Shown: one piece after another, positions 7,062 to 51,526 of the stretch
Position numbering within the stretch: the first letter of the stretch is position 1
Layout of the letters: every line of letters begins with the position of its first letter
NCBI RefSeq assembly: GCF_964194025.1
Contig: NC_134475.1
Span: 19,158,001 to 19,222,000 of the forward strand
Direction: 5' to 3'
Origin: Convolutriloba macropyga
Taxonomy: Eukaryota
DNA: 64,000 bases
Made by a program: the position numbers and the translations under genes
Notes under the pieces: generated by a model
The model's input: only the letters and a program-made list of their open reading frames with translations
What the model was told of the DNA's origin: nothing
The model's database searches: none

Positions 7062-7366
7062 AAAACATATGTGAACCTAGGTGTGTACTTGGACCAGCAG
7101 TGCACTGTACACTTTTTATTGGAATTATATGCGTACCATATGTTTTGAGAACACAAATGTGAGCCACCCTGGTTGGGTATTTGAACAAGCAGTGCAGTGT
7201 ACACTGTTTATTGATATTATATGCGGACCACATGTTTTGGTTCTATAGAGAAAACAGATGTGACCCTAGGTGTGTATTTGGACCAGCAGTGCAGTGTACA
7301 CTGTTTATTGGAATTATATGCGGACCATATGTTTATAACTTGGAACAGATGCGACCCTGGGTGTGT
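7062..7366. repeat. 3.3-copy tandem array of about 86-103-bp palindromic units inside the Polinton
   Basis: Units start at about 7062, 7150, 7251 and 7344 (partial). Shared core GGTGTGTAYTTGGACCAGCAGTGCASTGTACACTKTTTATTGGAATTATATGCGKACCATATGTTT, with unit 2 more diverged. Confidence 0.9.
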
Positions 7367-7764
7367 GATATAATTAGAAGCACAAGTGAACCTACAGCAG
7401 TAAGGAAATTCTGATAAGAATAAACATGCACCAGCGTACAATGAAATGCTAATAATAAAATACGCTCTGGATAAGAACTGAGTTAGTACACACTATAAAG
7501 TGTATCGACCCATGTATAATAACAAAATTTAGAGCATATATCAGAGCACATACACTACCAAAATTAAAACCATATTTGACCCCAGATATAATTTGTTGAA
7601 TTACACGTTGTGCAATATTACTTTAAAAATAGTTATTCATTTTCTTTAAACCTTGCGTTCAGTGCACTTTGCTTTCTTTAAACAGTTCGTTACCAGACAA
7701 ACACCTACCAACAGTCTTCTATCAAATTGGTTTTAGTTTCTTTCTCAAAATTTGGACAAAAATT

Positions 7765-9989: not shown

Positions 9990-10042
9990 GCGCCCAAACC
10001 GACCAATCAGAAAACAGCATTTCAAAACTTCGAATTTGGCGC
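9990..10042 (+). promoter_or_regulatory. Putative PolB promoter with E2F-like, CCAAT and CHR-like motifs
   Basis: GCGCCCAAA 9990-9998, CCAAT 10003-10007, TTCAAA 10021-10026 and TTTGGCGC 10035-10042, 120-170 bp upstream of the ATG. Motif match only. Confidence 0.35.
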
Positions 10043-10161
10043 CTATGCAGTACTGTAGTCTCTAATACTGTAAACCCGAGAAGCCATTTCTTGTTCATTC
10101 GTTTCTACTGTTCGTACTCGAGTTTAACAATTCGTTCTTACTAAAGTTAGACAATTCAAAA

Positions 10162-17089: not shown

Positions 17090-18260
17090 ATTTTAACCAT
17101 TTTTCAAGATTTTTGAAAGTTTTGACCTTTTTTTAGCCCTAGGTGTCAAGGAACGTCATCTATTAGATTACTGCTCAGTTTCTAGTGGAAATAGAATGTT
17201 TTTCAACATTTGTCACGAATTTTAGCATTTGTTTCTGACAAAACTTGCAATTTTCAATTATTTTTTTGACATTTATTGTCATTTTTCAAGTTTTTTCCAG
17301 ACACAGGGGCCAGAAAACCTCCTTAAGGTTTTGACAATAAGTTACTGAAAAATTTTTTAGTGGCTATGGAATAGTTTTCAACTTTTAAATATCACAATTT
17401 TCAGCATTTTTTTAAATAAAACTTATAATTTTCAGTTTTTGACATTTATTGTCATTCAGATTTTCTAGCCTCTGGGATCAAAAACCTCCCTTTAGGGTTT
17501 GACAATAAGTTACTGAAAAGGTTTTATTTGCTATGGAATAGTTTTCAACTTTTTATTATCACAAATTTCAGCATTTTTTTGATAGTTTACATTTTTCTGT
17601 TTTTTCTGACAGTTCTTGTCATTATTCAGATTTTGCAGCCTCAAGGGTCAGAAAACCTCCTATAGGTTTTGAAAAAAAGTTACTGGAAAATTTTTGTTGG
17701 CCGTGGAATAGTTTTGAACGTTTTAATATCACGAATTTTTGTTATTTTTGTAGAAAACTTGCAATTTTTTCAAGTTTTTTTTGTATGTTTTTGTAATTTT
17801 TTGTTTATCCAGCCGCAAGAGCCAAGGAACCTCATCTAGTGTTTGATAATAGGTTACTGCTTTGGTTCTAGATGTAATTGAATGTTTTCAAGATTTTAAT
17901 ATCAGGAATTTAAGCAATGTCTTTAAAAAATATTTGCAAATTTTTCTAGTTTGAATATTTGATTTTTTCGTTACCAGGGGCCCAGGGACCTCCTCCGTGG
18001 TTTGGCAATAAGCTGCTACATACTTTTTAGAGTTAAAGGAATGGTTATCAATTTTTTAATGACTCGATATTTCAGCAATTTTATGATAAAACTTGCAATT
18101 TTTTTTATCAATTTTTGAGAATATTTGTTATTTTTTATGTTTCTCCGGCCTCAAGAGTCAAGGAACCTTCTTTAGGGCTTGACAATGGGTTACTGCGTAA
18201 TTTTTTGATGTAATGGAAGGTTATTTAAGATTTTATTATCCCGAATTTAAGCATTTTTTT
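17090..18260. repeat. Diverged tandem satellite, about 7 units of 165-175 bp
   Basis: Recurring GCCTCAAGRGTCARGRAACCTCC...TTTGACAATAAGTTACTG...GGAATAGTTTTCAA...ATCAC-like block at about 17137, 17300, 17468, 17638, 17812, 17972 and 18148. Confidence 0.85.
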
Positions 18261-18330
18261 TAAATTAACAATGCTAGAAAACTAGAAGTTGCAGAGTCGA
18301 ATCTCATCATGGAAAATATTCCTAGAGCTC

Positions 18331-18373: not shown

Positions 18374-19341
18374 GTTGGGGCTGGGGTTTCTTTCCTTGTC
18401 TTTCTCGTTCACCTTTTATCTGTCGCACACTATATCGGTTTTTCCTTGACTCTTTTATTGATGCCGCACTTCAGCTGCTGTTATTTGGCGTGATGTCATC
18501 ATATTTTACCCTCACCTCACGCCCATTCAATTAAGCTAAAGCTAGCCTTACTAAACCGTGGCTATCTACTGACGAATCCAAGCTACTGATAAAGTCAGAA
18601 CAAATTAAATGGTCAAAACACAATAAACAAACAAAATACTTTTCGGGGTTAAAAAACAGTAAAGTTTTGACGATGTTACATAAATTAGAGCAATTTTGGT
18701 TTTGGAAGCATAAAGTCCAACGGTCGAGGGATTGTATGTGGACACCCGTTCACAATCTTGTTGTTCTTTCCGCGATTGTTTAAAGATTCTGCGCTGAAAA
18801 TTCGTTTTGTACAATTTTTGGGGCCTTACAAATCTTTGTGTTTCTTTGGAGCAGTATTGTGCTTCTCCTGAAACAGGCGACTATTAAGAGCAGTTATTGA
18901 CATTTTGTTCTGAAAAAGATTGATTTTCCCATTTCAAGTCTTTCAATTTTGATTATGAGTTCTCCAACGTACATATGTTGACAAAATTTTCAACCATCCT
19001 ATTGCTATATTCAGTAGTATGCTGCTTCTGGCTGAAGAACTACGTTTTTTAGCGCTCTCTTTGAATTAATTGTCTTTTTCTCGTGTTTTTGAGCCAATTA
19101 TTTTTGTCAGAAATGTTTTCGGCTGTTGTGCTTTTGCAAACTTATAGAAATTGATTTGTCAAGTCGACCGCAGTTATCATAATTCGATTATCATTTGAAA
19201 AAAACACAAACACGTGAATTGTAAATTCGGAGCCATGTAATTGGCAGACTCCAAAAGTTTGAGCGCTATATAAACTTTAGCGCGCATTTATCAGAGAAAA
19301 ATTTATGCGTGCACCAACAACAAATTTAATTTGAAATGTAA

Positions 19342-22294
19342 CAACAAGGATGCTCGGTAATGTGCGTAAGCACATAATGTTCCGACCCCGCTCATCCACA
19401 TTCTTAACTTAATTGGCTACCAAATGATGAAGAGATCAAAAACATAGATATCGTTCAATAAACAACAAATGGAATATAATAATGCCACGCTAGAGGGCCG
19501 ATGACAGTTTTTGATAATAGAACTACTAAAAAGGACCATTAAAAAAATCATGAAACAAACATTATTTACAACCACAACTCGATGTCTACAATAAAAGAAA
19601 TCATAAAATCAAACTCGCGTCAGATAAAATCTAAACAAAACAGTTTAATCTATTGGATCTCATGCGACTGGTTAACAGGTCGATAAAAAGTGAAAAATAG
19701 CAAAGAGGTGCAAAGTTAAAAAATACGTTTCTATTTTTGAAAACAGTTAACTTCACAGTTAATGTCATTAGATATCACCTGAAGTCACCGATTTTTTCAT
19801 GTATATCTCCAAAGCAAGCAATTGAGATATACCAGAATCCAATCTTCAATTGCGCAAAAATTTAAAGCCAATGGGACTTACGATTTTTGTTATAAAACCA
19901 AAAAGAAAACCAAAATAGAAAATCCTCTAAAATGTACAAATATCTAAAAATCTCAAACATTTTGAAGTCTCGTAGGAAAAGTAGTAAAAACCCAAGGATC
20001 GAAAGTTTGAAGCTATAACTGTTACCAGGGTTAATTTATAGCTCACTGCAAACGGGTTGTGACATGTGTTTACAAAGACTGAACTACAATTTGACAAAAA
20101 AAACTATTTTAAAAAATGACAAAGCTCAAAAACCCAAATTTGTTTTGGAAACAAATATTTCCAAAGGTCATAACAGATTTAAGATTTCAACAAAAATTGG
20201 GCCTACTAATAATGAGACCACGCCACGACCCAATGAGACAAAATAACAAATACATAACAACCACACAAAGAAGCCAAAACTTCAAACAATTTTACATCAC
20301 ACTCTTCAAGGCACTATACTTATAAGATGTTACTCGTAAGAACTGTAATTCATCTATTACTCCTCATCCTAACATCAATGAGGCTTCCCCATAAAAGGAC
20401 AACGTAGACACGACAACAAAAAGAAACCTGAAAATTGAACAGTATATAAATCTCGAAAAATTTTATTTAAAATAAATGGTCGAAGCAATCAGTCACAACG
20501 TATAACAAAGCGCAATAAAAGTGGATGAATCATCACACGTAACTAAGACTAATAATCAGTGTTATTGAGTTACATGGTGACCAAATTGAAAGCCAAAAGA
20601 TACAGTTGAAAAAAACTGTTTTAAGAAATTCAATTTGAAATTCTTTAAAACAAACAGCTATAAACTGAAATCTTTATCTAGGTGGAGTTATACGTCCTGG
20701 GGAAGCAATTGGGACCTATCGTTATCAGGTGTATGGCGGACAACAACAAAAGGTAAGAGAAACATAGAAAAAACAACAACAAATCCACAAAAATTTGCTG
20801 TATAACTTTAACTCAGCCCAAAAAGCATAAACTATTCAACAAAAACAATTAATATATACAGATACGCATTTTTCAACGCTGTTCAATTTTCCTACTATGT
20901 TTTCTTTCAATTAGATTTGCCAACAATGTGATAATTCGAGAAGGAAACGAAATGGACTCATAAAAATGCAATTATGCTCAAAAATGAAAATGAAATTTTT
21001 TTTTGAAAACACGTAGTATCAAAACAAGGAAAACAAAAATTGAATATAAAATTGTTGCCAACAATAATATATAACTCACACGGAATTGTTGTTTGCCTGT
21101 TTTTACTAAGTCGCCCGAAATTGAGAGAAATAAGATAAAATAGTGGCAAATTTCAAAGACTCACCGATCTTTTCTTAAAACAAATATATTCAAAGTCATA
21201 AGAGACTTTAGATAACAACTGAATGAATTTTCTAGGTTCATCTATACCTAAAAAATTAGCTGCATCTTTGACTGGGGACACTCAGTCGTTGGGCTACAAA
21301 AAGTATAACAAATGAAAGCAAAACTCAAGAAGTCTATAAAATTTTTACGAAAACAATTGGTCAAAGCCATAAAAATCATGAGCTCAACTATTAAAACATA
21401 TTAAAATTTCGTTGGACATCTTTTTTGCAAATAGAATTTGTCATTAAATCAGCCCTGATTTGAGATTCCTATCAGCAATTTACATAAAACCATTTACATA
21501 GCTGAAATGATTTGAAAAAAAGGTCAAGCCCCATTTAAATCTAAAAAATTTTTTATCTTACGGATCCACGGTGAGAACAAGATCAGCCCAGATATTGCTG
21601 CGCATCTAACAAAACAATCAGTTGTTCAAATGATTGCGAAATAGATCAATTTTTAAACGAAATTTTTAGTTCGTCAAAAAAAATAATGTTTTATTTGTAA
21701 TTATCGAGTTTAAGTTTGCAAAAAACTTGCAAAATTATGATCCAGAAGACTCATAAAGCCAGCGGGGTTACAATTAGATCCTTTCTGAGCTTAAGAAGAT
21801 TTCCACCGCATTTTTAAGGTTTCTACTTCCAGCAAATTTAAAGCAGGTGGGCTAAAAAAACAAATGTCATATTTTTCTCGAAAAAAATGTAGCATAAAAT
21901 CTAGCATCTTGATTTTTGAAAAATTTCGCATAAATTCTAGCCAAAAAACTCGGATGGAAGAACTCAGCAACCCCCTTTTATCTTAAGAGATGAAATAAAA
22001 AGCAGTACGGTTAAAAATTTTTCATTTTTGCAAAATTGACAAAAATTTGGTCAAAAATACTGAAAATGTGAATAAAAACAGCAATTATTCACAAACCCTT
22101 AAACCTCGATAACTCCCTATAAAAAGCGAAAAATGAAAAAATCTTTTTAATTCCTTATTTGACGCTGAACTTGCTTTCTAATGATACCACTCACAACTGT
22201 CTACGATGATTATATCCATCGGCCAAAATTGACTGAACAAAAAAACCCATTTAAATATATAGTTACTCCCCCCACAATTGGGGTCGGAGCAATT
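19342..22294 (-). mobile_element. HINE-like family B element
   Basis: Subterminal inverted repeat TTCCGACCCC / GGGGTCGGA; hairpin ATGTGC-GTAA-GCACAT near the 3' end; shared GATACCACTCACAACT...CTACGAT block; non-coding. Confidence 0.75.
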
Positions 22295-23282
22295 ATACGA
22301 CACAGATAGATCAGTTTAATAGCTTCGAAGTCAAGAAAAGTCAGTAAATTGCTTTAAGTGAGCCAGGGAAATTAAATTTCTAGAGGTTTTGAGTTAGCTT
22401 TTATTGATGCCGCACTTCAGTTGTGTTATATGGCGTGATGTCATCATATTTTACCCTCACCTCACGCCCATTCAATTAAGCTAAAGCTAGCCTTACTAAA
22501 CCGTGGCGAGCTACTGACGAATGCAAGCTACTGATAAAGTCAGAACAAAAGAAATGGTCAAAACACAATAAACAAACAAAATACTTTTCGGGATTAAACA
22601 GTAAAGTTTTGACGATGTTACATAAATTAGAGCAATTGTGGTTTTGGAAGCATAAAGTCCACCGGTCGAGGGATTGTATGTGGACACCCGTTCACAATCT
22701 TGTTGTTCTTTCCGCGATTTTTCAAAAATTCTGCGCTGAAAATTCGTTTTGTACAGTTTTTGGGGCCTTACAAATCTTTGTGTTTCTTTGGAGCGGTATT
22801 GTGCTTCTCCTGAAACAGGCGACTATTAAGAGCAGTTATTGACAATTTGTTTTGAAAAAGATTGATTTTCCCAATTCAAGTCTTTCGATTTTGATTATGA
22901 GTTCTCCAACGTACATATGTTGACAAAATTTTCAACCATCCTATTGCTATATTCAGTAGTATGCTGCTTCTGGCAGAGGAAGAACTACGTTTTTTAGCGC
23001 TCTCTTTGAATTAATTGTTTTTTCTCGTGTTTTTGAGCAAATTATTTTTGTCAGAAATGTTTCGGCTGTTGTGCTTTCGCAAACTTATAGAAATTGATTT
23101 GTCAAGTCGACCGCAGTTATCATAATTCGATTATCATTTGAAAAAAACACAAACACGTGAATTGTAAATTCGGAATCATGTAATTGGCAGACTCCAAAAG
23201 TTTGAGCGCTATATAAACTTTAGCGCGCATTTATCAGAGAAAAATTTATGCGTGCACCAACAACAAATTTAATTTAAAATGT

Positions 23283-26242
23283 AACAACAAGGATGCTCGG
23301 TAATGTGCGTAAGCACATAATGTTCCGACCCCGCTCATCCACATTCTTAACTTAATTGGCTACCAAATGATGAAGAGATCGAAAACATAGATATCGTTCA
23401 ATAAACAACCGATGGAATATAATAATGCCACGCTAGAGGGCCGATGACAGTTTTTGATAATTGAACTACTAAAAAGGACCATTAAAAAAATCATGAAACA
23501 AACATTTTTTACGACCACAACTCGATGTCTACAATAAAAGAAATCATAACAAAATCAAACTCGCGTCAGATAAAATCTAACAAAAACAGTTTAATCTATG
23601 GAAAAATTTTGGGACCAGTTCTCAATGCGACTGGTTAACAGGTCGATAAAAAGTGAAAAAATAGCAAAGAGGTGCAAAGTTTAAAAATACGTTTCTATTT
23701 TGAAAACAATTAACTTCACAGTTATTAATGTCATTAGATATCACCTGAAATCACCGAAATTTTCATTTATATCTCGATAGCAAGCAATTCAGACATACCA
23801 GAATCAAATCTTCAATTGCGCAAAAATTTAAAGCCAATGGGACTTACGATTTTTGTTATAAAACTAAAAAGAAAACCAAAATAGAAAATCCTCTAAAATG
23901 TACAAATATCTAAAAATCTCAAACATTTTGAAGTCTCGTAGGAAAAATAGTAAAAAACCCAAGGATCGAAAGTTTGAAGCTATAACTGTTACCAGGGTTA
24001 ATTTATAGCTCACTGCAAACGGGTTGTGACATGTGTTTACAAAGACTGAACTACAATTTGACAAAAAAGAACTATTTTAAAAAATGACAAAGCTCAAAAA
24101 CCCAAATTTGTTTTGGAAACAAACATTTCCAAAGGTCATAACAGATTTAAGATTTCAACAAAAATTGGGCCTACTAATAATGAGACCACGCCACGACCCA
24201 ATGAGACAAAATAACAAATACATAACAACCACACAAAGAAGCCAAAACTTCAAACAATTTTACGACATCACACTCTTCAAGGCACTATACTTATAAGATG
24301 TTACCCGTAAGAACTGTAATTCATCTTTTTCTCCTCGTCCTAACACCAATGAGGCTTCCCTATAAAAGGACAACGTAGACACGACAACAAAAAGAAACCT
24401 GAAAAATGAACAGTATATAAATCTCGAAAAATTTTATTTAAAATAAATGGTCGAAGCAATCAGTCACAACGTATAACAAAGCGCAATAAAAGTGGATGAA
24501 TCATCACACGTAACTAAGACTAATAATCAGTGTTATTGAGTTACATGGTGACCAAATTGAAAGCCAAAAGAGACAGTTGAAAAAAACTGTTTTAAGAAAT
24601 TCAATTTGAAATTCTTTAAAGCAAACAGCTATAAACTGAAATCTTTATCTAGGTGGAGTTATACGTCCTGGGGAAGCAATTGGGACCTATCGTTATCAGG
24701 TGTATGGCGGACAACAACAAAAGGTAAGACAAACATAGAAAAAACAACAACAAATCCACAAAAATTTGCTGGATATTTTTAACTCAGCCCAAAAAGCATA
24801 AACTATTCAACAAAAACAATTAATATATACAGATACGCATTTTTCAACACTGTTCAAATTTCCTACTATGTTTTCTTTCAATTAGATTTGCCAACAATGT
24901 GATAATTCGAGAAGGAAACGAAATGGACTCATAAAAATTGCAATTATGCTCAAAAATGAAATTTTGAAAACGCGTAGTATCAAAACAAGGAAAACAAAAA
25001 TTGAATATAAAATCGTTTCCAACAATAATATTTTACTCACACGGAATTGTTGTTTGACTGTTTTTACTAAGTCGCCCGAAATTGAGAGAAATAAGATAAA
25101 ATAGTGGCAAATTTCAAAAACTCACCGATCTTTTCTTAAAACAAATATATTCAAAGTCATAAGAGACTTTAGATAACAACTGAAAGAATTTTCTAGGTTC
25201 ATTTATACCTCCTAAAAAATTAGCTGCATCTTTGACTGGGGACACTCAGTCGTTGGGCTACAAAAAGTATAACAAATGAAAGCAAAACTCAAGAAGTCTA
25301 TAAAATTTTTACGAAAACGATTGGTCAAAGCCATAAAAACCATGAGCTCAACTCTTAAAACATATTAAAATTTCGTTGGACATCTTTTTTGCAAATAGAA
25401 TTTGTCATTAAATCAGCCCTGATTTGAGATTCTTGTCAGCAATTTACATAAAACCATTTACATAGCGGAAATGATTTGAAAAAAAGGTCGCGCCCCATTT
25501 AAATCTAAAAATTTTTTTATCTTACGGATCCACGGTGAGATCAAGATCAGCCCAGATATTGCTGCGCGTCTAACAAAACAATCAGTTGTTCAAATGATTG
25601 CGAAATAGATCAATTTTTAAACGAAATTTTCAGTTTGTCAAAAAAAATTATGTTTTATTTGTAATTATCGAGTTTAAGTTTGCAAAAAACTTGCAAAATT
25701 ATGATCCAGAAGACTCATAAAGCCAGCGGGTTTACAATTAGATCCCTTCTGAGCTTAAGAAGATTTCCACCGCATTTTTAAGGTTTCTACTTCCAGCAAA
25801 TTTAAAGCAGGTGGGCTAAAAAAACAAATGTCATATTTTTCTCGAAAAATCTGATTTTTGAAAAATTTAGCATAAATTCTAGCCAAAAAACTCGGATGGA
25901 AGAACTCAGCAACCCCCTTTTATCTTAAGAGATGAAATAAAAAGCAGTACGGTTAAAAATTTTTCATTTTTGCAAAATTGACAAAAATTTGGTCAAAAAT
26001 ACTGAAAATGTGAATAAAAACAGCAATTATTCACAAACCCTTAAACCTCGATAACTCCCTATAAAAAGCGAAAAATGAAAAAATCTTTTTATTTCCTCAT
26101 TCGACGCTGAACTTGCTTTCTAATGATACCACTCACAACTCTCTACGATGATTATATCGATCGGCCAAAATTGACTGAACAAAAAAAACCCCATTTGAGT
26201 ATATAGTTCCTCCCTCCCCACTAAAGTGGGGGTCGGAACAAT
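23283..26242 (-). mobile_element. HINE-like family B element (duplicate copy)
   Basis: Same termini and body as 19342-22294. Confidence 0.75.
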
Positions 26243-28090: not shown

Positions 28091-30551
28091 ATGAATCATC
28101 AACAAGCCCAGATGATGAGAAACCGATCCATGGTGCCTCCAAATGCTGCTCAAGTTCCTCCAAATCAAAACATTTCAATTGCTAATATGCCACAGTATTA
28201 CGATCAAAACCCACCCAATACAAATCAACTCCCGATGTCTGCGTCAATGCAAACAAATCTCCAACCTGGTATGGGTCAGTACCAACAGCAGCCTGCAAAT
28301 ATTAGCAATGTTCCACAAAGCCAATCACATTTAGGTGGTCAGTCGCAGCATCAGCAACAGCAGCAACAGTCTACTAATGTGCAAGGTCACCCTAATTCCT
28401 CGTCAAGTCATGGTGCAAGTCAGAATACCACGTCCTCAAGTGGCAGTGATTCGAACGCAGCTAAAGCAACCGACGTTGTTAATAGATTGAAAGTTTTATC
28501 TGATCGACATTTGAAAGATTCCTTGAGCAAGTTGATGACGTGTTGTGTGATGGCTGTGAATAACCAAGGAGGGAGAGATAATGGTGCTACTGACGTGAGT
28601 TCTAGCACCAGTGGAAGTGCAGTGACTTCGTCCTCGGGTGGTGAAAAGGACCCCGCGAACGAATACAGCAACGTCGCTTTGGGTCAAGCTGCCGAAGAAT
28701 GCATGGTGAGTTTTAGTTTTTCCAGTAGTTAAAGTTTGGTAAATATAAGGAGGGTATCAGAGGGAATTATATCAGTGTGTATATTGTTGTTATAAAGAAA
28801 TATTCAGAAAAGATTTTTATGGTGGAAACTGAGTGGATGAATCCCTGGCAATTCTAAGGTTTCTTTATTAGTAGCCGGAAAGCGATAGCGAAGCAATTGT
28901 TGCTCTTACCGTAGATTTTTTTCAAATGCAAAGAATTTGAATTGTTTTGGGGAGCTGTCTTTTGAATCGAAGAGTATGCTTTCTACGGGTTTTTTTTAAA
29001 ACCGGAAGTACTACATTCAAGTGGCGTTTTGACCTTAAAAGCGAAAGTGAGTAAATTTATAGTGTGAACTAGCATCTTCTGAGCTAGATAACTGTTTTGT
29101 TCACTGTACTTGTTGAGTAAATGAGTTTTTGACTTCGAATAGTTCCTCCAAAAGAAGGTGCATTTAGCTAACCGTTTTAGCCGTTTTTCGTCGAGTTAGC
29201 TTATTTTTTGGAAAAAAATAATATTTGATCCAGGCTGAAGATATGCAGATGTTCTCTGCAGTTCATTTTACGGAGCCCAGTAATACGTTCCAAGAAAAAA
29301 ATGGCTAAATTTTGTTTTTTTTTTCAATAAGTGACCTTTTTCTTTAATCAGTATGGCAAGGACATTTTATTAAATTTACCATTGCTCTCCTGAGTTTTTG
29401 TATTTACATGAGTTACTTTTCTTTTTTAAAAAAATAAATTTATATATATTTTTCTTATAATGTTTTTGGTTCAACTAGAATAAACATTTGCATGCACCGC
29501 CAATTTTGTGTTGCTGATAATCCAATTGTTTTTTAAGTGCGTAAAATTCAATGGAAAAAGGTTCAAAATGTTGTTCAAACATTATTCTGACATTTTTGGC
29601 ATTTGATCTTAGCTATGTACACATTGTCTTATTGAGTCAAGATAATGAACTCACATTGGTTTAATGAATAAGGAGAAAAGCCGTGGCTGAATGAAGAATT
29701 TTACCTTTTTCTATTTTGTTTTCTTGTTGTTTTTCAAATTGTTTAAGAGCTTACTATTTTTTTGCTAAGTGTTCGTAATCTATTCTTAACATTTTTGGAT
29801 GCTGTTTGTTTCTTTCAAATAAAATCTGTTTAGCATAGTGACCATAATGTTGAGTCTTAATTGCTCTGCATTATCAGCATTTAACAATTTCTTCAATTTG
29901 CATTCCTTTTTGTTGAAATTTTCAGTAATGTAGTGCAATATAATGTAATGTCGTCCTAAGAATGCGATGGGATTAGCATTTCATTTTGAGAGTTTTCATT
30001 TTGGCTTTCAATTTCAATCTTTTTCTTTTTATTTTGCATTCCGTATTCATTTTCGAATTAATTGAAGTAAGAAGTCACCGATACTGGAATTCGAAATATT
30101 GGTCAAGCTCTTTCAACAGTTTCAAAAAGAGTTCTAGAAATCAATGATTTTTGCTTCCTTTCAAATACAATTCTTAAATTTGCTTGTAATGAGTCGTTGC
30201 TCAAATTGATAATCCCTTTAGGCATTGCTGGACCAAATTGAAATGAACCTGCAATTATCTATCGACTGGACAAATCAGCTTAAAATCATGGACAAATTCT
30301 GCTCACCTCAAATGAGTCAATTATCTCCTCAGGATCAACAATACAGAAATATTACTACCGAAGATTTCCTCAGTGGCTACGCTGTCCATAAAGAGTACTC
30401 CGACAAAATGACAGCAACTATTGATGATTTTTTCAAGCAACTTTCTTCGATATCATCTAATGAGCATTTGTCATCGACTGATGGAATGGGAACTACTGAT
30501 AGTCATGATTCAAACAATGTCAACAGTTTTGCGTGTTCGGCTCTGCTTTGA
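28091..30551 (+). CDS. MED29: Mediator subunit 29 (Intersex); exons 28091-28705 and 30222-30551 (about 314 aa)
   Basis: Q/N/P-rich N-terminus, then DVVNRLKVL...LKDSLSKLM...EECM|ALLDQIEMNLQL, matching the MED29 core; GTGAGT donor at 28706, TTTAG acceptor at 30221, phase 0. Confidence 0.8.
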
Positions 30552-31599: not shown

Positions 31600-33490
31600 T
31601 GGAAATGTCTCAACCTTACCGGAGATCAAGCAAAAATACAACGGAAAAGCATAATTGGAAACGGAAAAGCATAAAAGCATAATAAAAGCAAGAAAGAAAT
31701 ATTATGAACAGAAGTTCCCAAAATGCATCGGAGACACATGAAAAGTTTATAGATTATAGATTTTTAAATGAACTTGAGGGGGTTGCTTCTAGAAACAGTA
31801 GCCTTCCTTACCTACTGCAAGATGGTCGACGAACTGATGAGAACCTAAAAATTCCAAACGAGCTTAAAACTGTTTTTGTACGTATTGGACAAAAACTAAA
31901 GGAACACAACCCAAATGAGATCTGTTTTGGTTGTTTAGTTAATAATTTGACGAGTGTGTGGTTTAATTTAAAAAATTGCACAAAAATTTTGCAATTAATC
32001 CAGAATCTTAAAAAATAGTCATCTTCGGGAGTTAATGATGTCAGTCCATTTTTAATGGAGAAAACAAGATCCTTAAATTGTAAGCATCTTGTTCATCTTA
32101 TAAATAAGTCTCTTTTAAACACTAATTTCCCGAGTATTCTGAAACAAGCTGAAATTGTGCTTCATCATAAAGAAGAGGCGAAAGATGAAATAAACAACTA
32201 CAGAGTGATCTAACTTTTCATTGTGTGAAGTAAAATTTTTGAACGCGTTATGTATAGTGTAATATACGCGTACGTTGAAACGTTCGATTTAATTCATCGT
32301 AGTTATTCATCCTAGCACAACTGATACCCTTGCTAAATTAAAGGAAACTGTTTGTGAGAACCATGAGCAACCACATTTTCGGTGACTTAAAAAAGCCTTT
32401 GATACAACTGACTACAAGATCCTTTTAAAGCTTGATCTATTTGGTGTAAGAGGGGTTTGCCTAAGTTGGATTAGTGATTTTTTCGAAAAGAAAGAGTTGT
32501 GTATCAGTCAATAATTGCATTTCCAGCTGGCTAAAGCCATTCTGTGGTGGTCTACAAGGCTCAATTCTCGGTCCACTGTTTTTTATATACATAAATGATC
32601 TACCAGACGTGTGTCAAGTCTGCAGAACTTCTCTTCACAGATGATGCCAACTTAACAACAGACTACAGTGATTTTGAATCAATACAAAAGGATTTGCGCA
32701 ATGTAGAGAAATGTCTCACTGAGAAAAAGCTGTCCCTTAATCCTAAAAAGTTATCAAATGAATATAAAAATAGGTAACAGTGCCTCTAATATCATTGTTT
32801 TTCAGTTTTTGAAATAATTTTTGTAATATAGTTGAATCTGAAATCTGCATGTATCTTGGAGTGCGTTTGGATAAATAGTTGAAATTTTCAGAGAGTTTTT
32901 AAGTTGAAATTGTCATTGATTCAGTGTGGAATAGTGTCAAAATTAAAGTATTATGTTTCCAAAAGCGTTCTACTCCGGTTTTTTCATCAAACACAAACCG
33001 ATCATTCAATACGGTGTGTTGATATATGGATCTGTCGAGTTTACCGCCCTTGAAACAGTGGTTCATTTGCAGAAATAAATTTTAAGAAATGCACTGAAAG
33101 TTTAACTGACCCGTCTTGTGAAATAAAAGAATATAACCGCGCACGAATTGCACGTTTAAGAACTCCCTAAGTTAGCAATTAAATAAGTGAATAAATTGCA
33201 CACAGATACTTATATCAATGAATTGTTTACTTTTGAATCCCGGTCAAACAATTCAACACAAAGATGTTTGAAATTGTTGTTGAGATTACCAAACCCTGAA
33301 CGAAAATTCGAACAGATTTCACTGATATACAGAGGTGGCATATTACTTACTTTTTTAAATGGAAAGCAATGTGTTGCCATCAATTAGTAATCAGCTTTCG
33401 GAAAATTTGTTTGTCAGTTTGGTGCGCAAGCTCATGGGTAACTACATTTTGTCGAATTTTGAGTTAACAAAAACAATCTTACTGATACCT
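31600..33490 (+). pseudogene. Decayed non-LTR retrotransposon (LINE) reverse transcriptase
   Basis: Fragments (D)LKKAFDT at about 32385, GLQGSILGPLFFIYINDLP at about 32548, LFTDD (YADD equivalent) at about 32631, YLGV at about 32851 and QYGVLIYG at about 33007, with many stops and frameshifts. Confidence 0.85.
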
Positions 33491-34573: not shown

Positions 34574-35357
34574 GGTTGAAAAGGAAATAATATGCACCCA
34601 CTAAGCTGATAGGGGCACACCGAAAAGATCCGAACTATAATGGGCTCTAATAAAATTATTTGAAGCGTCTAAGTTTATTTATTGCCCCCATACTGTGAAG
34701 TCTACATTGAAATCAAGCTTACGCCTATCATTCGAGTGCGAGCGGTCCTAGTTTATAATTTTTGTTTTACGGCGATAGCTTGTTTTAAAGGTCCTGATCG
34801 ATTGTTTCAGCAACAATGGGCGAACGTTTACGAACGGTATTTCTCCTTGGTTTGTTTTATTTGATGGCTGGAGAGTTGTTTCTCCAGAAGTCTTAACGGG
34901 TTCTGGGGTACGTAACATAGATGACGAAGTAATATTTTTCACCGTTTCAGACGGGGATAGATACAAGAAACAAATGTCTATTAAAATTGGATTTTGTTGG
35001 CTTGTTTTCTGTGAGAATGATTTGTATACTGATCGCATCTTGAGCTTGAATCGAATATTTCGGCATTAATAGTAGTGCAACATCGTTATTTTAAGCATTA
35101 TATGAATCAGTTATAATTGCTGTCTAATTTTACATGTGGACATTTCAAAATCAATGGAGGAAGTTTGTACACAGCCATAATTGTTAACTAGATTTGATTA
35201 TGAAAATTTGAAATTAATTTTTGTCGCATTTCCATGTGGTACGCTTGCTCGGGTCGTTTTATGAGCTACTTAGCTAATCTAGCAAGTCAGTCAAGTTCAC
35301 TGTTTTTTAAAATAGTGGGGTGAGACATCTGACTTAGTGATGCCCTATTTCAGTTTT

Positions 35358-38300
35358 ATGGTACTTCAATCGTCGTTCAATGCTGGAGTTCAATGTAGGA
35401 CTCTCTTCAGAAAAGTTCCAAAGCGGGGTAAAGTGAAATCTTCAGAACTGCTGCGTCATTATCTATCTGTGCACAACTATCCACCTTGGACTGCGTTTTT
35501 TGTGCTTCAGAAAGACATTAATGACGACCATTATCCCAAAGCGCACTACAATTTCTCGATAGTTGATACAGTTGAAACGGAAGTCAATTATCATGTCCTG
35601 AGAACACGCTGCTATCCTTTTGTCAAATTCCATTGTTCGAAGCGAACACCACAGGTTAGTTTGTATTCTAGCGTTTTTTGCTTCGTTGCTCCTATGCATT
35701 TTAAGCTCAGAAACATTACTGAAATTTTCTTGCATCAAGTATGATAGAACATCTCTTGCAAAATAGATTTTTTTTATATTCAGAGGCCGGTAGTGCAGAT
35801 GAGGTGGTACAGTTTATGCTGTAGTCTGTTGCTATCAGTCGTCACACACCGGTCCGTCTGTAATTAGTATGTCTAACAATTGACAACGTAGTTTGACTTG
35901 GTTCTTGATGTTAAGTAACTCTCCTTTCAATAAACATTCACAACGTTAGTATTTCCAACGTTGAGGTATGAACAATTGTACCTGCAAATTGGCCCAGCCA
36001 TCAGTCAAAATAAAAAGCGATGTACCGTCAGGCTCCTGAAAGCCCTAGCTTATGATTGTGGATACGAAGCTCAACAAAACTGCACTACGTCAACCTATAA
36101 CCTTTTGGAAATTAAAACGGAACTGTTTGGATAGGAAACAACAATTGAAGTTAGAGGTCGAAAATTACCTAAGATGGTAAAATCTTTCGATGTGGAAACA
36201 CCTTTACTCCAAAACAAGCAGAAATACTCAGCTACAGGACGCCGCAGGCCTAAAATGTAAAAAGACACTTCGCAAAAAACTGGTAATCTGCAAACACTCA
36301 GGAAATGTAAATTCTAGATAGAGACGTCTGTTTTAGCATCAAAACATTGTTTTTTTTTCAAGATGCTGCGAAAAAGGTGAAGTTATTTAGCTGAAGTTTG
36401 AAAGAGATACAACAGGGGAAAATATTTGAGTTCTCAGAGGAAACAAAAAGCCTGAGTGGGTAACCTTCAATTACGAAATACTTAGTTGCATTTAAATTAT
36501 GATAAATTTTATCAAAGAGTTTTTATAAAATATGTTTTGACTATACGCGAACTCTTTAGTTTGATTTTTTTTGAATTATACACGATTTTGATTGAGCTTC
36601 ATCAGTATTTATCCATAACTCTTTGAGAAATAAATTTTTTTTACATCTCAAAGTAAATTCATGACCTCTGATTCAAAGGTAACTTTTTTCATATTATACT
36701 TTTCCCAACAAGAACATTTTGGTCGAAAACAGGGGTAAATGTGGCTGTAGAAGCTTCTTCAGTCTAAATAAAACTAATATTCTCATGTTTTATTAGAGTA
36801 ATCTAAAACGAACCCAAAAATCATTAAGCAAACAGCAGCTCCAAGTCACGTGTATTCAGTGAAACCCATTCGCTAACTTTCACCAGCTGAGGGGCTGGCA
36901 AAAGTTAGCAATTGTGATTTGATTGTTCCAAAAAATGCCAATTTTTTACTGCTTTAGATATTAAAATACAAAGCATAAAAAATATTTAAGTCTATTTTAG
37001 GACAAAGTAGCAGTAAAAGTTATGCAATCTTAAAAAGAAAGAGCTGTTTTCTTCTTCAGACCTTTTTCTATCTGACAACAATGATTTAATATGAAGTTTT
37101 TGGTAGCTTCTATATACCCGTGAACTTAAATGTGAAAGCTCTCTGAGGCAGCTTAAAAAATTGTAATAGTTTTATGCTGTAGTTTTGGTTTAATTAATCC
37201 GCTAAGGAATATATTTTATTAATATATCTAAAAGTTTAAATTGTCAAAAAATTCAAAATTCCATAGAACCATCAGCTACGTAAAAAAAGTTCAAAAGAAA
37301 GACGTTATACTTTACTAGAGAGCATTTCAGACGTCCTAGTTTTTGGACAGAAAGGCGAAACGTTCATCAAAAGAGAACTAAAAAATTCAAAAACTGCGTT
37401 AAGATGATTAACAACATAGAGAGACCGAACATTTGAAGTAAGAATTGTTTTAAACTGCTTTAATATAAAAATGAAAAGATCATGCCCGAACAAAATTTCA
37501 AAAGTAAAATGATGTTTTGAGAAATGTGTCGTTTCTAAATAGGTAATCTCCATAAAAATAACTGAAATTGAACGCACTAAAGCTGCCTCTTTCCAATACG
37601 AACTGTCATCATTAATGATAATCAGGAGAGCTGCCAAAAAGCACTATGAGAAGGAGAACTAGAATAATGTCGACAATTTTTTAAAAACAAATATTTTTTG
37701 AAGTAAAAAAATTTATCATAATCGTAAGAGGCGAATCACACAGTTGAAGCTAAGCACTTATCGAAATAGTTGGTTGGTTTTTAATAACAGTGGTGAAGAA
37801 TTCTGATCATAGTGGTGAAGTCAGCAAAAGCTCGCGAACATTTTCTCTTATCGCCAAAAAAGCCGTTCGATTTCTGAAGCTTAATGTTGTTTGTTTCCAC
37901 CTGTGCTACCTCAGTTGAGTTAACTTTTCTGCTACCTGATGTGCCCCATCAAGTGTGACTTCGAATTGAACTTCAGATCAAAAATTGTGAAGACTTCCTT
38001 AAAAAACATTCTAAATTATGAAATTAGAACTCAATTACAGCTGACGGAGAACGTGGAGCTGCTCCTAACATCTCATATTTGTTGTTGTTCGGATGAATGA
38101 CACAAATATGAGAAAAAAATCATAAGCGCCTCAAAGGCGATCAAAATTTCAAAAATGTTGAAACAAATTCTGATTTTTTAATGTGCCAGTGTAGTCCAAA
38201 AGAGTGAAAATGTACACAATGCAGAAGAAGTCCTTGTTCATTCGTGGAGGTAAATGCTTGCGTTCTTATGATCTTGTGCTGACTTTACAAAATGGCAGTG

Positions 38301-38534
38301 CTGTTTTAAGGAGACTAGTGTTGGTGATCTGAAAAAAATTGGTTTCAGGATTTGTCGGTGGAGAATTATCTATTCACAGTCCTGAAGATTTTGAATTTTG
38401 GGTTTCCTTGTCTGCTGTACGGACTAGCGGGTCGCTTTCTAGCTAAATACGAAGAGTTTGTCTTCATAGAAACAACTGAGCAAACTGTTCGTCTGTTATT
38501 TTGGTACAAGGAAGACAAAGGCAGTCCTTTCTAG
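35358..38534 (+). CDS. C15orf61: C15orf61-like (DUF4528) protein; exons 35358-35654 and 38349-38534
   Basis: SSELLRHYL...PPWTAF...NYHVLRTRCYPFVKFHCSK...Q|DL...LKILNFGFPCLLYGL...KEDKG matches the family; GTTAGT donor, TTTCAG acceptor, phase 0. Alternative ATG at 35340. Confidence 0.88.
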
Positions 38535-38543
38535 TGTGGAACA

Positions 38544-39793
38544 ATGTCGGAAACAGGAAATGTTACAATATGTCTTCTCTGTGGTTTACCAGGTTTGTTG
38601 ATTTCCCTGTTTTGTTTGTGAATTCCCTGAAAAATAATTATTTCACTTGTTTTTACCTGAAGACCCTAAATTGAGATTATTCTGAGTATCAAAATCAATC
38701 GCGCTTTCTTGCCCAGTTTCGACTTGGTGTAAAGCTGTTGTCTTTAATACTAAAGTTGAATGGTGTGTGAGTGCATCCATATTCAGTTACTGTGCGTACC
38801 GATTAATTGTTTGGTGCATAGTAATTTTATAAGCTGTCAAAAATTGCCTGTGTTTAGCTTGTTCGTCTCTATAGAGTTCACATCGTTTCAGGAGCTGGTA
38901 AAACGACGTTAGCTCGGCAACTTGTCGATAGATTGTCGGCGATGTTTAGTTTTACTTTGTATCATTATGATGACCTTATTAGTGTCAACTCTGATCTCAG
39001 CCTCAGTTCATGGAAAGAGCGCCGTAACGAAGTATTGAGAAAGTGTCGTAACGATATTGAGGATTCAAATGCGACTGAAACGAAAGCTTCTCGTGTGTTT
39101 CTAATTGATGACAATATGTACCTGCAAAGTATGCGATACAGCTATTTCCAACTTGCGAGGTTTTTGACTGTTGGTTTTTGTCAGATTTTTATCGAATGTC
39201 CTGAACAATTGCTGAAGCAGAGACTTAGAGAAAGAAACAAATCGAAAGAGTTTGAGCTAATGGGAATTTCGGAGGAAACGTTTTCGCGAATGTCTATAGC
39301 CTTCGAACCACCAAAAGTGCAAGTCAATGGGTGGGAATCGAACACGGTTACCGTGGAACCAGATAAGAAAATTGAGACAACTTTGGCAATGGTCGAGGGA
39401 TTATTTTATCACTCTATGAAATATCCAGTTCAACCTGTGCCTGATCGAGAAAAGATTGTTTGTGGGGTCGACTCTTTTCACCACCGGGCAGATCTTTTAT
39501 TGAGAACTATAATTAAAGCTAGAATAGAAGAGAGCGACCCAAAACTGAGAGGAAACATTGCGAAGAGCTTGACTGAGAACAAAAAATTGTTGCTCGAGTC
39601 ACTTCGAAAGAAATCGTTGGCTGATTTTTATCTATGTGAACATTTGGACTCTGTGGACCAAATATGCAGAGATAAAGTTATGTATGCTTTGGAGGTTTTG
39701 GACTGGCCCTTGGATAAATGGGACCCACCGGATGTTTGTGAACAAGTTGTGACTGAATGTTTTGTAACATTGACGGGAAATAGCTCATCTTAA
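38544..39793 (+). CDS. PSTK: L-seryl-tRNA(Sec) kinase; exons 38544-38592 and 38892-39793
   Basis: Splicing builds Walker A CLLCGLPG|AGKTT; also YDDLI, LIDDNMYLQSMRY...LAR...GFCQIF, FEPP...WE and HRADLLLR. Confidence 0.9.
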
Positions 39794-40293: not shown

Positions 40294-43200
40294 ATGCTGA
40301 CAAAAGAACTGAAGAAAGACTTTTATGTGAAATTGCAGAACAAAAGAGTGATAGTGCTGGCAAGCTATGAAGTTGATAGTGTGGCTGCTTGCAGAATTTT
40401 AATCAATCTGTTCAAAACAGATAGTATCCAATACACTTTAGTTCCAGTCTTTACATCTGACAATATAGAGCAAGCTTTTCTGGAACATAATGCGCATTGT
40501 AATGACTTCCTCTTCATCAATTGTGGAGCAACCATTGACCTCTTGGAACTTCTGAGTCCTGGAGGCATGATCAACTTCTACATTATTGACGCTCATAGAC
40601 CTATTAGTGTGACTAACGTGTTTTCTGAGCAGATTCACGTTCTCATTCGTGATTCGGAACCTATTGAGGAGATCCCGAAGTTTGATGACGTTTTCCGCGA
40701 TGACGACGAGGATGATGACGAAGGAATTGAGGAGGATCCCAATGCTGAAGATGGCGAGTCCTCCGAAAATGAAGGTGAAGGCGACGAGAATCGAGATCCC
40801 GAAAGTGCAACTGATCCTAGCACTGGGTTCTCGAGAAGGCGAAAGAAGAAAGGTTTCGACGATGAGAAATATCTCCGATTGGCAAAAAAGCAGCGAGAAA
40901 GGCGTCAATGGGAGGACAAACGAACACAAATTTTACGAACCTACGAAGAGTCAACATTTTTCAGTTGCTCCTCGGCGGAAATATGTTACGAATTGTCTTG
41001 GCTGCTTTCGAAAGATACCAACAATCTTCTGTGGTTAGCTATTATTGGTCTCACAGATCAATACTTCTTGAATCGGGTTTCAAAAAGTGGAACCAACTAC
41101 CTCAACGAACGTGACTTTTTAGGATCACACGTACGTCGTCTCAACAATTGGCTGGAAAATGATTCAAGTTCAATCGTATCTGTTGACTGTATGAAAATAA
41201 GTTCCGAGAAAGAGCTGAGAATTTATCTTTACAGACATTGGACTATATGGGAAAGCTTTTACAACTCACTTTTCACCATGTCTCAATTTAAACTATGGAG
41301 CCTTAAGGGTCAACGAAAGCATTTAGACTTTCTATCGTCTATTGGATTGTCATTACAGAATTGTAAACGTAAGTTTAAGTGTATCGATACGAAAGTGAGA
41401 ACCGAATGCAGCTCCAAAATCATTTCAACATATGAAAGGTTGTTCAGGCAAGGTTTGAAATCGAACATATGGTTTAGTTCGTTCACAGCCCAGTATGGAG
41501 TTATGAACAAGTTCAGTGCCCTGGATGTGACTATAGCTATGAATGCTCTATTGGAGGACCCGGCGACTGTTGCTAGCTCGACTGAGAAGTTCATGAGGGC
41601 ATTAGATGCGTTGTCATATACAAATTGTCAAATGGTGGCTGATTCGATTGACAAAGCCAAATTTCTACTTCAAGCTGTATGTGAACAGGTAAATTTGTTT
41701 CAACGTGTTGCGCTCACAAAATACTATTGGTTCCAGATAGTTTGTATGGTTTGAGAAACTTTTTCTGACTTTCAGCATCGTGTTTATTGGCATCAACATT
41801 TTTTTGTATGCGTGAACAAACAGATTGTCAGTTTTTAAGCATCGTAAGTGTAACTTAAACTTGAAAAAGGATTGGTAATGTGAGAGCACAAGACGTTCCA
41901 AACTTCTCAATGCGGAACCATATATCAAAGTTAGGAGCAAGACAAATTCGTCTGTTAACAGTGGATCTCAAGTGTGAGATGATTTTTAAGGAGGCGAGTT
42001 TCCAAACAACTGATAGAATTCTGAATTGTTCGATCAGTATTAAAATAGCTTTAACTAATCACAAGATTTGAGCTTAACCAAAGCAGTCCACTTCATAATT
42101 AGCTACTGACATGTAAACGAAATATTAAATATTAGAAAATCATGCTATTCGACAAATCTGTAATTAATAAATGTAGTACTAACAAGGAGGCTCGCTAATG
42201 TGCGTTCGCACATAAAGTTCCGACCCCGCTCATCCATATTTTTGGTATAAACGTCTACCAAATGAGGAACGGATAGAAAAACCCCAAAAATTATTTTTCA
42301 AAAGAAAGTGTAAGACAAAACAATTGCCTCCAACGCAAAAAGCTCAGAGGAGTACAAAATGACGCATTAGACTGATGAGATCAGCAATTATTAAAAAAAG
42401 CAAGTTAAGAGGAACAACAAAATCAAACAACAATAACAACAAACATTAATTACATCCAAAACTTATTACCATTAAAAAAAAACTTTTTAACAAGGTCAAA
42501 ATAGCGTCAGATAAAACTAAAACTAAACAAAATAACTTGTACTACAATAAAAAAAAACATATCAGACGACTCCATAATAAGGCTTGGTAACAATTGTAAC
42601 AATTAGACAAAAAAGAACAAAAAAACAGCAAAGTTAAAACGTTGCCTTATAATTTTAAAAACAATTTATTTTTAAGTAATGAAAACCATTAAAAAGTAAT
42701 TGAAAACAGCCAACATGTTTTTGATCAAATACGCTACTACAGGAGGGCATTAAGACCTGTCATCAGTAAATTTTTTATGTGGTTGCAAAAAGAACAAGAA
42801 ATAGGGACAGCAAACAAAAATTCGACTAAAACGCTGTCGAAGCCGTAGCGCCATATTTTGCCCCTCAAAATATGTTCTTTTAAGCCTTCCTCGAAAGCCA
42901 ATAATGTGGTATTCGACCTCCAATTAATAGGAATATGTAATAAGTAGATAAAACTGCCTAAAAATTAAAAAAAATTGTGAAATCCAGTACAATCAAAGCC
43001 AGAAAACCATAACTTAACGCGTAAAACCGAAAAAAAGGTTTAAATTTTAGTTAAGCAGAAAGAAGAGGCATTCTTTGTTTGCTGACACTACAAGTTGACC
43101 AAATTAAGAGTAAAATAGTGACAAAGTTTAATAAGTCACTTTATTTAACCTTTTTAAGTCAAATTAAAACATTTTTAAGTCAAAACGACCATAATCTTTC

Positions 43201-49200: not shown

Positions 49201-50708
49201 ATTCAAACTACAGATATCCCCACGTACTTGTCCGCCCGTTCCCCTTCCCCCTCCGCCCGCCTACCTTCCAACCACGCCTCAAACTACAGGCACACACCTT
49301 CTCCCCCACCTGCCTGCCCCAGCCCTACCGTACTACCGTACTTACACCTCCTAACTTACCCCTGTTACCTGCCAACCTCCCCTCCAACTACCCCACATAA
49401 CTGCACCTCAATCCTCTAAACTAAAATTCAGTTTTTTTAAAACAATGTTTAGTTTTATGAAGCTATTAATTTCGTTATTTCTTTTCTTTGATTGTTAATT
49501 GCTCTCAAACGAAGTTTGTAGCAATTATATTAGTCCTGTCGGTCTTTTTTTTATGCGATTTTTCGCTTGACCAATTTTTCATCTGACGCTTTTGACTTTT
49601 CGTCCTCAAAAACGGGATAAACAGGTAGCGCCCAGTGGGCATTATGTGCTCTTAGAGCCTTTCAGGTCTGTTTCAGCTCAAACTGTCTTGGAGACTTATA
49701 CTTATGGTGTGAGGGGCGGTTCTTAGAGGTTGACACCCCCCCTTTGTTGACCCCCCCACCCCCACTATTGGCTCCACCCCCCCTCACCGCGCTTCCCCCC
49801 CCCCGTGGCTAGCTACTGACCAAGCCAACCGCTCGCCGGTCGTTTGAGAGCAATTCGCCCGACGTTAGTCGGTTATGTTTCTTATTTTAGGTAAGGATAG
49901 GTTTGTGTTTATATTGCACGAGTCTTCGAGTCGTTACCTGTATTCTATCGGCTATGTTTTTATGCAAAATTTTCTTAAAGCTTGATGCGACTGTGAGCGA
50001 AAGGCAATTAAAGGCTTTGTAATACAGTGGTAAAGATGTCAGGCTGTCAAACATTTTAGAACTACGCCCTCTTCGAAATTAAATTGCCCCCGTCTGTCGT
50101 TCAAGAACAATTGATCCGACTATAGTTTGGGTTTTTTGGGCGTGCTAACAGAGTACTATAAGGGGCGTGGGTATTTAGTACAATAGCGGAAATAATTCAA
50201 AAACTGAAGATTATGAAGTGTTTTAAATTTACACAATTAATAAAAAAATTTAATTTGAATTACAAATCACTGACAATCAAAATTGTTACTTTAGACGAAG
50301 AACGTGCTGTCAACCAACAGGGCAGTAAACACGGGCCAATTTGTTCTCGTTTCTCTCAGCTCCAGCATCAAAGATGCCAAATATTTCTCCAATTTCAACG
50401 CCTTCAAACTCCTGGGCTTATATATTGTCAATTGCATAGTCTCAAGCAACAACCGATTGGGTAATAAAAGTTTTGTCATCACTGCACCTTCTTCGAGCGA
50501 TGAAAATAACACTGTTGTTTTGGGACTACCACCGCTGCTATTAATGGAAGAAAAGTACTCCAACATATTCGGAAAAGCATTTGAAACGGCAGCTGACATG
50601 ACAAAGTCTAGAATTTATCAAAACTATTTTGAAAATAATTATCTGGACATCAGAACGGAAGATCTTGTCAAGTTTTTGGATGCTTTAACAACCATTATGG
50701 CATCCTAA
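40294..50708 (+). CDS. CDC45: Cell division control protein 45; exons 40294-41688 and 50295-50708 (about 602 aa)
   Basis: EVDSVAACRIL, FINCGATIDL, IDAHRP, acidic insert, LLWLAIIGLTDQ, LYRHWTIWES and terminal NIFGKAFETAA...KFLDAL; GTAAAT donor 41689, TTTAG acceptor 50294, phase 0, 8.6-kb intron. Confidence 0.95.
42180..43982 (-). mobile_element. HINE-like family B element in the CDC45 intron
   Basis: AACAAGG...ATGTGCG-TT-CGCACAT...TTCCGACCCCGCTCATCC at the left end; CCCCTTAAGAGGGGTCGGAA at the right end. Confidence 0.75.
45201..48268. repeat. Older tandem duplication (about 45201-46816 and 46820-48268) in the CDC45 intron
   Basis: Shared blocks such as AATGTGGACARTGAAATCGCTC, GCTCTGCAGAGCTATCGCTA and TTCCATGGAAAG; copy 1 has an extra internal duplication of about 200 bp. 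Confidence 0.85.
49495..49880 (+). mobile_element. HINE-like family A copy, C-rich core
   Basis: TTAATTGCTCTCAAACGAAGTTTGTAGCAATTA ... TCGTTTGAGAGCAATTCGC-CCGAC-GTTA-GTCGG-TTATGTTT. Confidence 0.8.
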
Positions 50709-51526
50709 AATTAAATTCTGGTCTTATGTTTTGTTTTTTGAATCCACTTAGTGTTGCGTGTTGTGAGTTTTTGAAAAGTTGTGCAGTTGTTGTTTTTGTG
50801 CTTTTTTGGATTCTAATTAGGTGCTAATTAACGTGCTCTATCACTCAGTATTTCTGACTAAATTGTGTTCTGATTATAGTAGCCTTTTTGGTTGAAAAAC
50901 ATTTGTATATGTACACGTTTTTGTTGAATTTGTAAATCTTATTAATGATTATCTTTTGCTCGTGTCTCGGTTGATAGCCATTTAAAGTTTAATGCGTTTT
51001 GATGTAAATACTGAGTTTAGTTGTCATTAATTTCCCCATTAGTAAATTAAAATGTTTCCCAACATGTCAAAATTTTCGAAACACCCATGTGTGTGAGAGC
51101 GAGTTTATTATCTCTGTCATCAGTCCGAGATTCTTTCTTGTTTTTTTATATAACTCAAGAGAGAAGGTGAATGTATTATTATAATCAGAGTGAACGTAAA
51201 AGAAGAGATAGGAATTCCTGGAATAGGAATTTCGAGGAAAAATTACGTTGAGAAATTTAAGGAGCCCAGAGAGGAGAGTGGTTATTTTGTCCATTGCGAC
51301 AATTGATAGAAAGTTAGCAATAAATGTACAAAAGACTTTGTTTTGCTCAGTGAAAGTAAGTTCTGTTTACATGGGGGTTTTTGAAGCAGTTTTCTATATT
51401 TTGTTGTTTTTGGCTTTACATTCTTCATTATATCGCAAGTGGTTCATTTTTCAAATATTAGTAGAAGTCCTTTCGCACAAAACTGCTTTGAATCGCCGTC
51501 TACTTCTTTTTTTTCGAATTTCTTCA

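Follow-up and report, generated by a model that had tools for sequence, protein, structure and literature searches.

Animals are already known to have operons, some of them intercistron-less, and also dicistronic loci in which the gap is below 20 nt. In the intercistron-less operons of Ciona, the upstream mRNA receives its poly(A) tail on the G of the acceptor AG, and AATAAA is missing in 16 of 18 cases; the authors proposed that a given precursor is processed into only one of the two mRNAs, upstream or downstream, and they left open how the upstream 3' end is formed and whether the upstream mRNA survives as a branched molecule (PMC1488885). When repeats are left out of the count, gaps in Macrostomum operons peak near 100 nt (PMC8629364), and those of Schistosoma measure at least 5 nt, with a median of 99 nt (parasitic flatworms, PMC12582326). 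In Drosophila, CG34140 is dicistronic with Mkp at a distance of 7 nt, which serves here as a precedent for spacing only (PMC4528330). In the acoel Symsagittifera roscoffensis 30.2% of genes are trans-spliced, and the genome is repeat-rich, with 36.7% GC and introns that are few and long (PMC9911081).

Here we analyze a locus in a 64-kb stretch of eukaryotic, AT-rich and repeat-rich DNA (the window), in which genes for a C15orf61-like protein, PSTK and CDC45 follow one another on the same strand. We favor, by a modest degree of confidence and from the arrangement of the sequence, the reading that the three genes form an operon resolved by spliced-leader (SL) trans-splicing. A literature search, conducted mostly outside subscription papers, returned no report of a C15orf61-PSTK-CDC45 arrangement, of any acoel operon, or of trans-splicing to an acceptor formed by a stop codon.

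Gene models and their surroundings

The features that make up the locus are as follows.

35358..35654, + strand: C15orf61-like (DUF4528) exon 1, 99 codons
35655..38348, + strand: C15orf61-like intron, phase-0 GT-AG, 2694 nt
38349..38534, + strand: C15orf61-like exon 2, 61 codons and TAG, ATG-free in all frames
38535..38543, + strand: spacer TGTGGAACA, 9 nt, keeps the frame, lacks AG and has A at -3 relative to the PSTK ATG
38544..38592, + strand: PSTK exon 1, 16 codons and 1 nt, encoding the first beta-strand and the first half of Walker A
38593..38891, + strand: PSTK intron, 299 nt, phase 1, within Walker A
38892..39793, + strand: PSTK exon 2 through TAA
39926..40265, + strand: dispersed repeat occupying most of the PSTK-CDC45 gap
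40294..41688, + strand: CDC45 exon 1
50295..50708, + strand: CDC45 exon 2 through TAA, for a total of 602 aa

Both exons of the C15orf61-like gene match Pfam DUF4528 (PF15031) above its cut-off of 27 bits (exon 1, match at 35316-35741, E 5e-21, 75.3 bits; exon 2, match at 38328-38531, E 1e-14, 55 bits), and when joined they form an uninterrupted 160-aa frame; the gene is complete. The start at 35358 is probable, with an alternative in-frame ATG at 35340, and the N-terminus, judged by eye, looks like a mitochondrial presequence. To place the stop, we used the 34 matches to the exon-2 frame, from which an unrelated 999-aa protein and three matches that fall short of query residue 50 were excluded. 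The TAG lies no more than 3 residues from the homologue end in 24 of the 30 proteins that align through residue 50 and, as read from these alignments, is the natural end of the family. An artefact or a truncated gene at the junction is ruled out, as the frames are all open and the stop sits at the usual family end.

The DNA reads as originally predicted at the junction itself, where the TAG at 38532-38534 is followed after 9 nt by the PSTK ATG at 38544-38546. That prediction had missed that the spacer, at three codons, keeps PSTK in the C15orf61-like reading frame. Its proposal that PSTK exon 1 is needed to complete the Walker A motif is also borne out, since exons 1 and 2 together give an open 316-aa frame that contains GLPGAGKTT. 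Between 14600 and 38890 only two phase-1 donors follow a G-x-[PAQS] motif, one of which is that of PSTK exon 1. The other candidate first exon has its donor inside the DUF4528 exon and was rejected, as it lacks the hydrophobic strand of PSTK homologues. In the ORF calls of two relatives, similarity ends at the same point of Walker A as the PSTK intron, which fits an intron position conserved in these relatives.

PSTK functions in selenocysteine synthesis, on cytosolic tRNA(Sec). The best NCBIfam match of the predicted protein is the eukaryotic PSTK model TIGR03575 (E 1.8e-27). Exon 2 alone scores 96.5 bits against a curated cut-off of 382, and the cut-off does not discriminate here because the named Culex PSTK, at only 125, also falls far below it. 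The top Pfam match is the related KTI12 family, and a PDB sequence search gave only weak matches (E 0.12 and 0.26) to PSTK entries of archaeal length. The sole named match is the Culex L-seryl-tRNA(Sec) kinase, with which it has DDNMY...SMRY in common. By its best model and named-protein matches and its intact Walker A, the gene is a predicted eukaryotic PSTK. The database ORF call for the same gene (P0001) begins downstream of Walker A, and the model given here is thus relevant to annotation, as P0001 omits that motif.

CDC45, a third gene that did not figure in the original prediction, lies downstream of PSTK on the same strand. Its product acts in DNA replication, and the named CDC45 matches are all about 35–40% identical. 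The gene has a single intron of 8.6 kb, and the ORF calls of two relatives (P0009 and P0010) stop at the same place; the lineage is therefore intron-poor, with conserved intron sites. An ATTAAA lies within two bases after the CDC45 stop TAA (50706-50715); it may serve as a poly(A) signal, and the 3'UTR would then be very short.

Human C15orf61 is described in two 2026 preprints as a protein of the mitochondrial inner membrane that binds ATP synthase and limits its multimerization; the two disagree on whether it is stoichiometric (PMC12919160; 10.64898/2026.05.29.728872). Animal operons, in turn, frequently combine unrelated genes (PMC1488885). The suggestion that the junction links a selenocysteine-pathway kinase to an uncharacterized protein thus finds no support, and our searches found nothing that ties PSTK, CDC45 and C15orf61, or selenocysteine synthesis and ATP synthase, together functionally.

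Of the 211 listed ORFs at least 50 aa long, 122 were scanned against Pfam for further host genes in the window, and none gave a match. A gene of two exons (28091-28705 and 30222-30551), which encodes 314 aa with a long N-terminal part rich in Q, N and S and may resemble MED29, lies 4806 nt upstream of the C15orf61-like gene and was excluded from the operon; Pfam, NCBIfam, PDB and Atlas gave no match and so no support for the MED29 identity. Positions 1-14500 contain Pfam matches to an A32-like ATPase, an rve integrase and an adenovirus-type protease, along with a capsid-like ORF and a polymerase-like ORF (in two pieces) that were recognized by eye only, and presumably represent a Polinton/Maverick-like element. 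Positions 17287-18267 carry a degenerate tandem array whose period is about 170 nt, and a tandem duplication of about 3.95 kb, 95–99% identical, spans 18479-26211 and is either a recent duplication or a feature of the assembly. A broken remnant at 31686-33400, apparently of a LINE, has reverse-transcriptase-like motifs by eye, and its scanned fragments have no Pfam match.

The stop-codon junction and the acceptor-like sites

An acceptor-like AG is found 4, 9 and 8 nt upstream of the C15orf61-like, PSTK and CDC45 ATGs, respectively.

35346..35353, + strand: acceptor-like site with TTTCAG at its end, 4 nt upstream of the C15orf61-like ATG
38525..38534, + strand: candidate PSTK acceptor, eight pyrimidines and AG, formed by the last codons and the stop codon
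40276..40285, + strand: acceptor-like site with TTTCAG at its end, 8 nt upstream of the CDC45 ATG

The motif YTNYAG matches all four modeled cis acceptors, one of which comes from a gene modeled by reading frame only, and is located 0–12 nt before three of the four modeled start codons; the corresponding count for non-coding ATGs is 39 of 688 (5.7%). Under two similar rules the probability of three or more out of four is about 4e-4, a value that overstates the case because the rules and the 12-nt window were set after the sites had been seen. The CDC45 site agrees with the strict local consensus. The site before the C15orf61-like gene, which has a branch-point-like CTGAC about 21–25 nt upstream, could be either a trans acceptor or the cis acceptor of a 5'UTR intron, with GTAAGT at 34459 as a potential donor for cis use.

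At the junction, the stop-codon AG is the last AG upstream of the PSTK ATG, and the 8-pyrimidine run that precedes it includes the T of TAG. The original description of this stop as acceptor-like holds for the relaxed YTNYAG but not for the strict consensus YTTYAG, which it misses at -4, with C in place of the T found in all four cis acceptors. It also has no branch-point-like motif: YTNAH, a loose motif that is commoner in AT-rich non-coding DNA, is absent within 60 nt of the stop site and present at six of six other sites. Scored ad hoc, the stop AG ties the best cis acceptor and falls within the top 4.2% when ranked against non-coding AGs and the top 2.7% against coding ones, and an 8-pyrimidine run is found at 10 of 1352 codon boundaries. 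Selection of a Y-to-F change or of pyrimidine-rich C-terminal codons for the sake of the acceptor was considered and is unsupported, as random synonymous codons for the residues S-P-F give a pyrimidine run of at least 8 in 33% of draws, and homologue C-termini have a terminal F in 4 of 24 cases and a penultimate P in 3 of 24. From the sequence around it, we tentatively propose that the AG of the stop codon may be the PSTK trans-splice acceptor, which we regard as about twice as likely to receive the PSTK leader as the exon-2 acceptor at 38348.

The claim that the junction leaves no room for a 3'UTR or a poly(A) signal is true of non-overlapping sequence only, as a 3'UTR could extend over PSTK exon 1. 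AATAAA does not occur in 38349-38600. This absence is barely informative because unique DNA after the other three modeled stops is also without AATAAA, the only one there (40102) lying inside the repeat.

A 3'UTR that overlaps PSTK is part of one alternative, in which the two are independent overlapping genes and PSTK is driven by a separate promoter, situated in the intron or in exon 2 of the C15orf61-like gene. We consider this unlikely. The stretch 38295-38543 contains no ATG, so that the PSTK ATG would come first on such a transcript, and a donor-like AG/GTAAAT at 38250 within the C15orf61-like intron, a kind of site that non-coding sequence has 11 times in about 45 kb, would possibly allow a short non-coding exon to be spliced from 38250 to 38349. 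Furthermore, FlyBase has many close gene pairs whose 3' gene can use an alternative promoter (PMC4528330). The lack of ATG, however, is not significant under synonymous recoding (P(0)=0.13), and a selected loss of ATG from C15orf61-like exon 2 was rejected on this ground; Met is also missing from this region in 9 of 23 homologues. Among overlapping coding windows of the length of this exon, 77 of 3396 are ATG-free, with this exon counted in. An internal promoter also leaves unexplained both the acceptor-like sites before three ATGs and the scarcity of unique DNA upstream of CDC45.

It is less probable still that a single mature dicistronic mRNA is used, with PSTK translated through termination-reinitiation; leaky scanning is the less likely route. 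The 9-nt gap and the A at -3 of the PSTK ATG would suit reinitiation, but the upstream ORF is 160 codons long, and ribosomes generally reinitiate poorly once they have translated a long ORF. From the stop to the next exon junction there are 58 nt, just beyond the mammalian decay rule of roughly 50–55 nt from stop to exon junction, and no unusual RNA structure was found at the C15orf61-like/PSTK junction (z -0.23). Leaky scanning would have to pass four further ATGs in C15orf61-like exon 1, which are near the chance number (5 including the start, 5.0 expected) and show no AUG depletion. CDC45 is not explained by this model. Precedents do exist, as unrelated Drosophila dicistronic pairs lie 0, 7, 15 and 17 nt apart (PMC4528330 File S1) and reinitiation on a bicistronic mRNA is selectable in yeast (PMC11952965).

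The in-frame spacer brings in one more alternative, to which we give very little probability: a C15orf61-PSTK fusion with a mitochondrial leader, made either by splicing exon 1 to 38535 or by readthrough of the TAG. Because the phase of exon 1 is 0 at its end and the spacer has three codons, both joins would be in frame, although in-frame spacing has a prior chance of 1 in 3. None of 34 matches in the read-through frame has a Walker A or a PSTK-like N-terminal continuation, in a set of mostly single-ORF calls from which spliced fusions could be missed. The inner-membrane location of human C15orf61 (PMC12919160; 10.64898/2026.05.29.728872) also stands against the action of PSTK on cytosolic tRNA(Sec). 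As a variant, a common non-coding first exon could be spliced onto each gene; the GTAAGT at 34459 would provide a donor for this exon or for the fusion, and FlyBase has records of shared 5' exons (PMC4528330).

Linkage to CDC45 and the proposed processing

PSTK and CDC45 are separated by 500 nt, which falls to 164 nt when the repeat (about 336 nt) is removed. The remaining unique DNA consists of 133 nt before the repeat and about 23 nt between the repeat and the CDC45 acceptor, and no donor-like site is present between the PSTK stop and the CDC45 acceptor-like site. Other copies of this repeat family are found near 15887, 16654, 30957, 33802, 47547, 49495, 51527 and 57872; their ends are conserved and their middles variable, with a subterminal inverted motif, a hairpin-like 3' end and T-rich flanks, and we assume the family to be Helentron/HINE-like. 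Three copies contain a stretch that resembles a tRNA but is not called by ARAGORN.

In one relative, PSTK (P0003, 40% identical) and CDC45 (P0010, 78%) list the same longest contig, of 517,750 nt; as a positive control, the PSTK and CDC45 of the window likewise list one common contig value. PSTK and CDC45 are thus probably on one contig in this relative, which at 518 kb is no proof of adjacency. The second pair (PSTK P0002 and CDC45 P0009) lists differing contig values, and the sole close relative of C15orf61 exon 1 (P0128) lists a 40,638-nt contig, unlike the PSTK contigs of both relatives.

Three mechanisms had been offered for the junction, unranked. The surroundings of the junction favor SL trans-splicing because of the acceptor-like sites before three consecutive starts, the 164-nt repeat-adjusted gap and the probable PSTK-CDC45 linkage, and termination-reinitiation is weakened by the length of the 160-codon ORF. 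In the proposed operon, the three genes would form one transcription unit, presumably driven by a single promoter upstream of the C15orf61-like gene, and SL trans-splicing, which we assume to occur in this animal, would cut it into single-gene mRNAs by attaching a spliced leader before PSTK and before CDC45. An Rfam scan and a search with two 12-nt motifs taken from the leader of S. roscoffensis found no SL RNA in the 64-kb window, and the window has no tRNA or Rfam genes. The operon would not require the three genes to have a common function.

The PSTK leader would be joined at 38535 if the stop-codon AG is used; with the alternative site, the exon-2 acceptor at 38348, the leader would be 195 nt long and contain no ATG. 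Use of the stop AG could leave the C15orf61-like mRNA in one of two forms. The mRNA may end at the stop with poly(A) added directly, in the style of Ciona, and have no 3'UTR. Alternatively, it may come from uncut molecules whose 3'UTR runs through PSTK, and each molecule would therefore yield one protein or the other. That the upstream nuclear mRNA has no 3'UTR, carries its poly(A) straight on the UAG and has its branch point in coding sequence seems doubtful to us. Should the operon be real, and the animal be an acoel or a member of another lineage from which operons are not described, this would be the first operon there and a further origin of the intercistron-less arrangement.

Comparison with known systems

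The locus is like the dicistronic loci of Drosophila in that unrelated genes lie 0–17 nt apart within one transcript there; translation in Drosophila is thought to occur from one mature mRNA, unlike in the operon proposed here (PMC4528330). In the 12 supplementary files of that set there is no Pstk, CDC45 or seryl entry, a search by name that could miss orthologues under CG numbers (PMC4528330). The window is broadly similar to the S. roscoffensis genome, with 30–42% GC per 2 kb and 1 intron per modeled gene, a likeness that gives the impression of a possible acoel source; the word "operon" is absent from that paper (PMC9911081).

The SL operons of flatworms and chaetognaths (Macrostomum, PMC8629364; Paraspadella, PMC12460157; parasitic flatworms, PMC12582326) likewise group conserved housekeeping genes in short-gap clusters, and repeats inflate their gaps as they do that between PSTK and CDC45. 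Their gaps, measured up to the next gene from where the previous one ends or has its poly(A) site, are typically about 100 nt, whereas the window has 9 nt from stop to start. The SL1-type operons of C. elegans likewise have minimal or zero intercistronic DNA (PMC1488885; PMC12582326), but the three characterized cases have an upstream AATAAA, which the window junction lacks (PMC1488885).

The closest likeness is to Ciona intestinalis, where same-strand genes abut and AATAAA is usually absent upstream of the boundary (PMC1488885; PMC2760879). In Ciona, cDNA evidence places the upstream mRNA end at the acceptor AG, whereas the boundary proposed in the window is predicted from the sequence (PMC1488885; PMC2760879). 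The boundary in Ciona operon 11 has a C at -4 and TAG, as at the PSTK site (PMC1488885). The main text of the Ciona paper contains neither "stop codon" nor "termination codon", and the boundaries in its Fig. S3, in an untranslated comparison, resemble AT-rich UTRs (PMC1488885). Unlike in Ciona, the candidate boundary at the PSTK junction is the stop codon itself, which would leave no 3'UTR and would place any branch point in coding sequence. This would make the stop-codon junction the sharpest test of how intercistron-less 3' ends are made, as it sets an mRNA with zero UTR against mutually exclusive processing.
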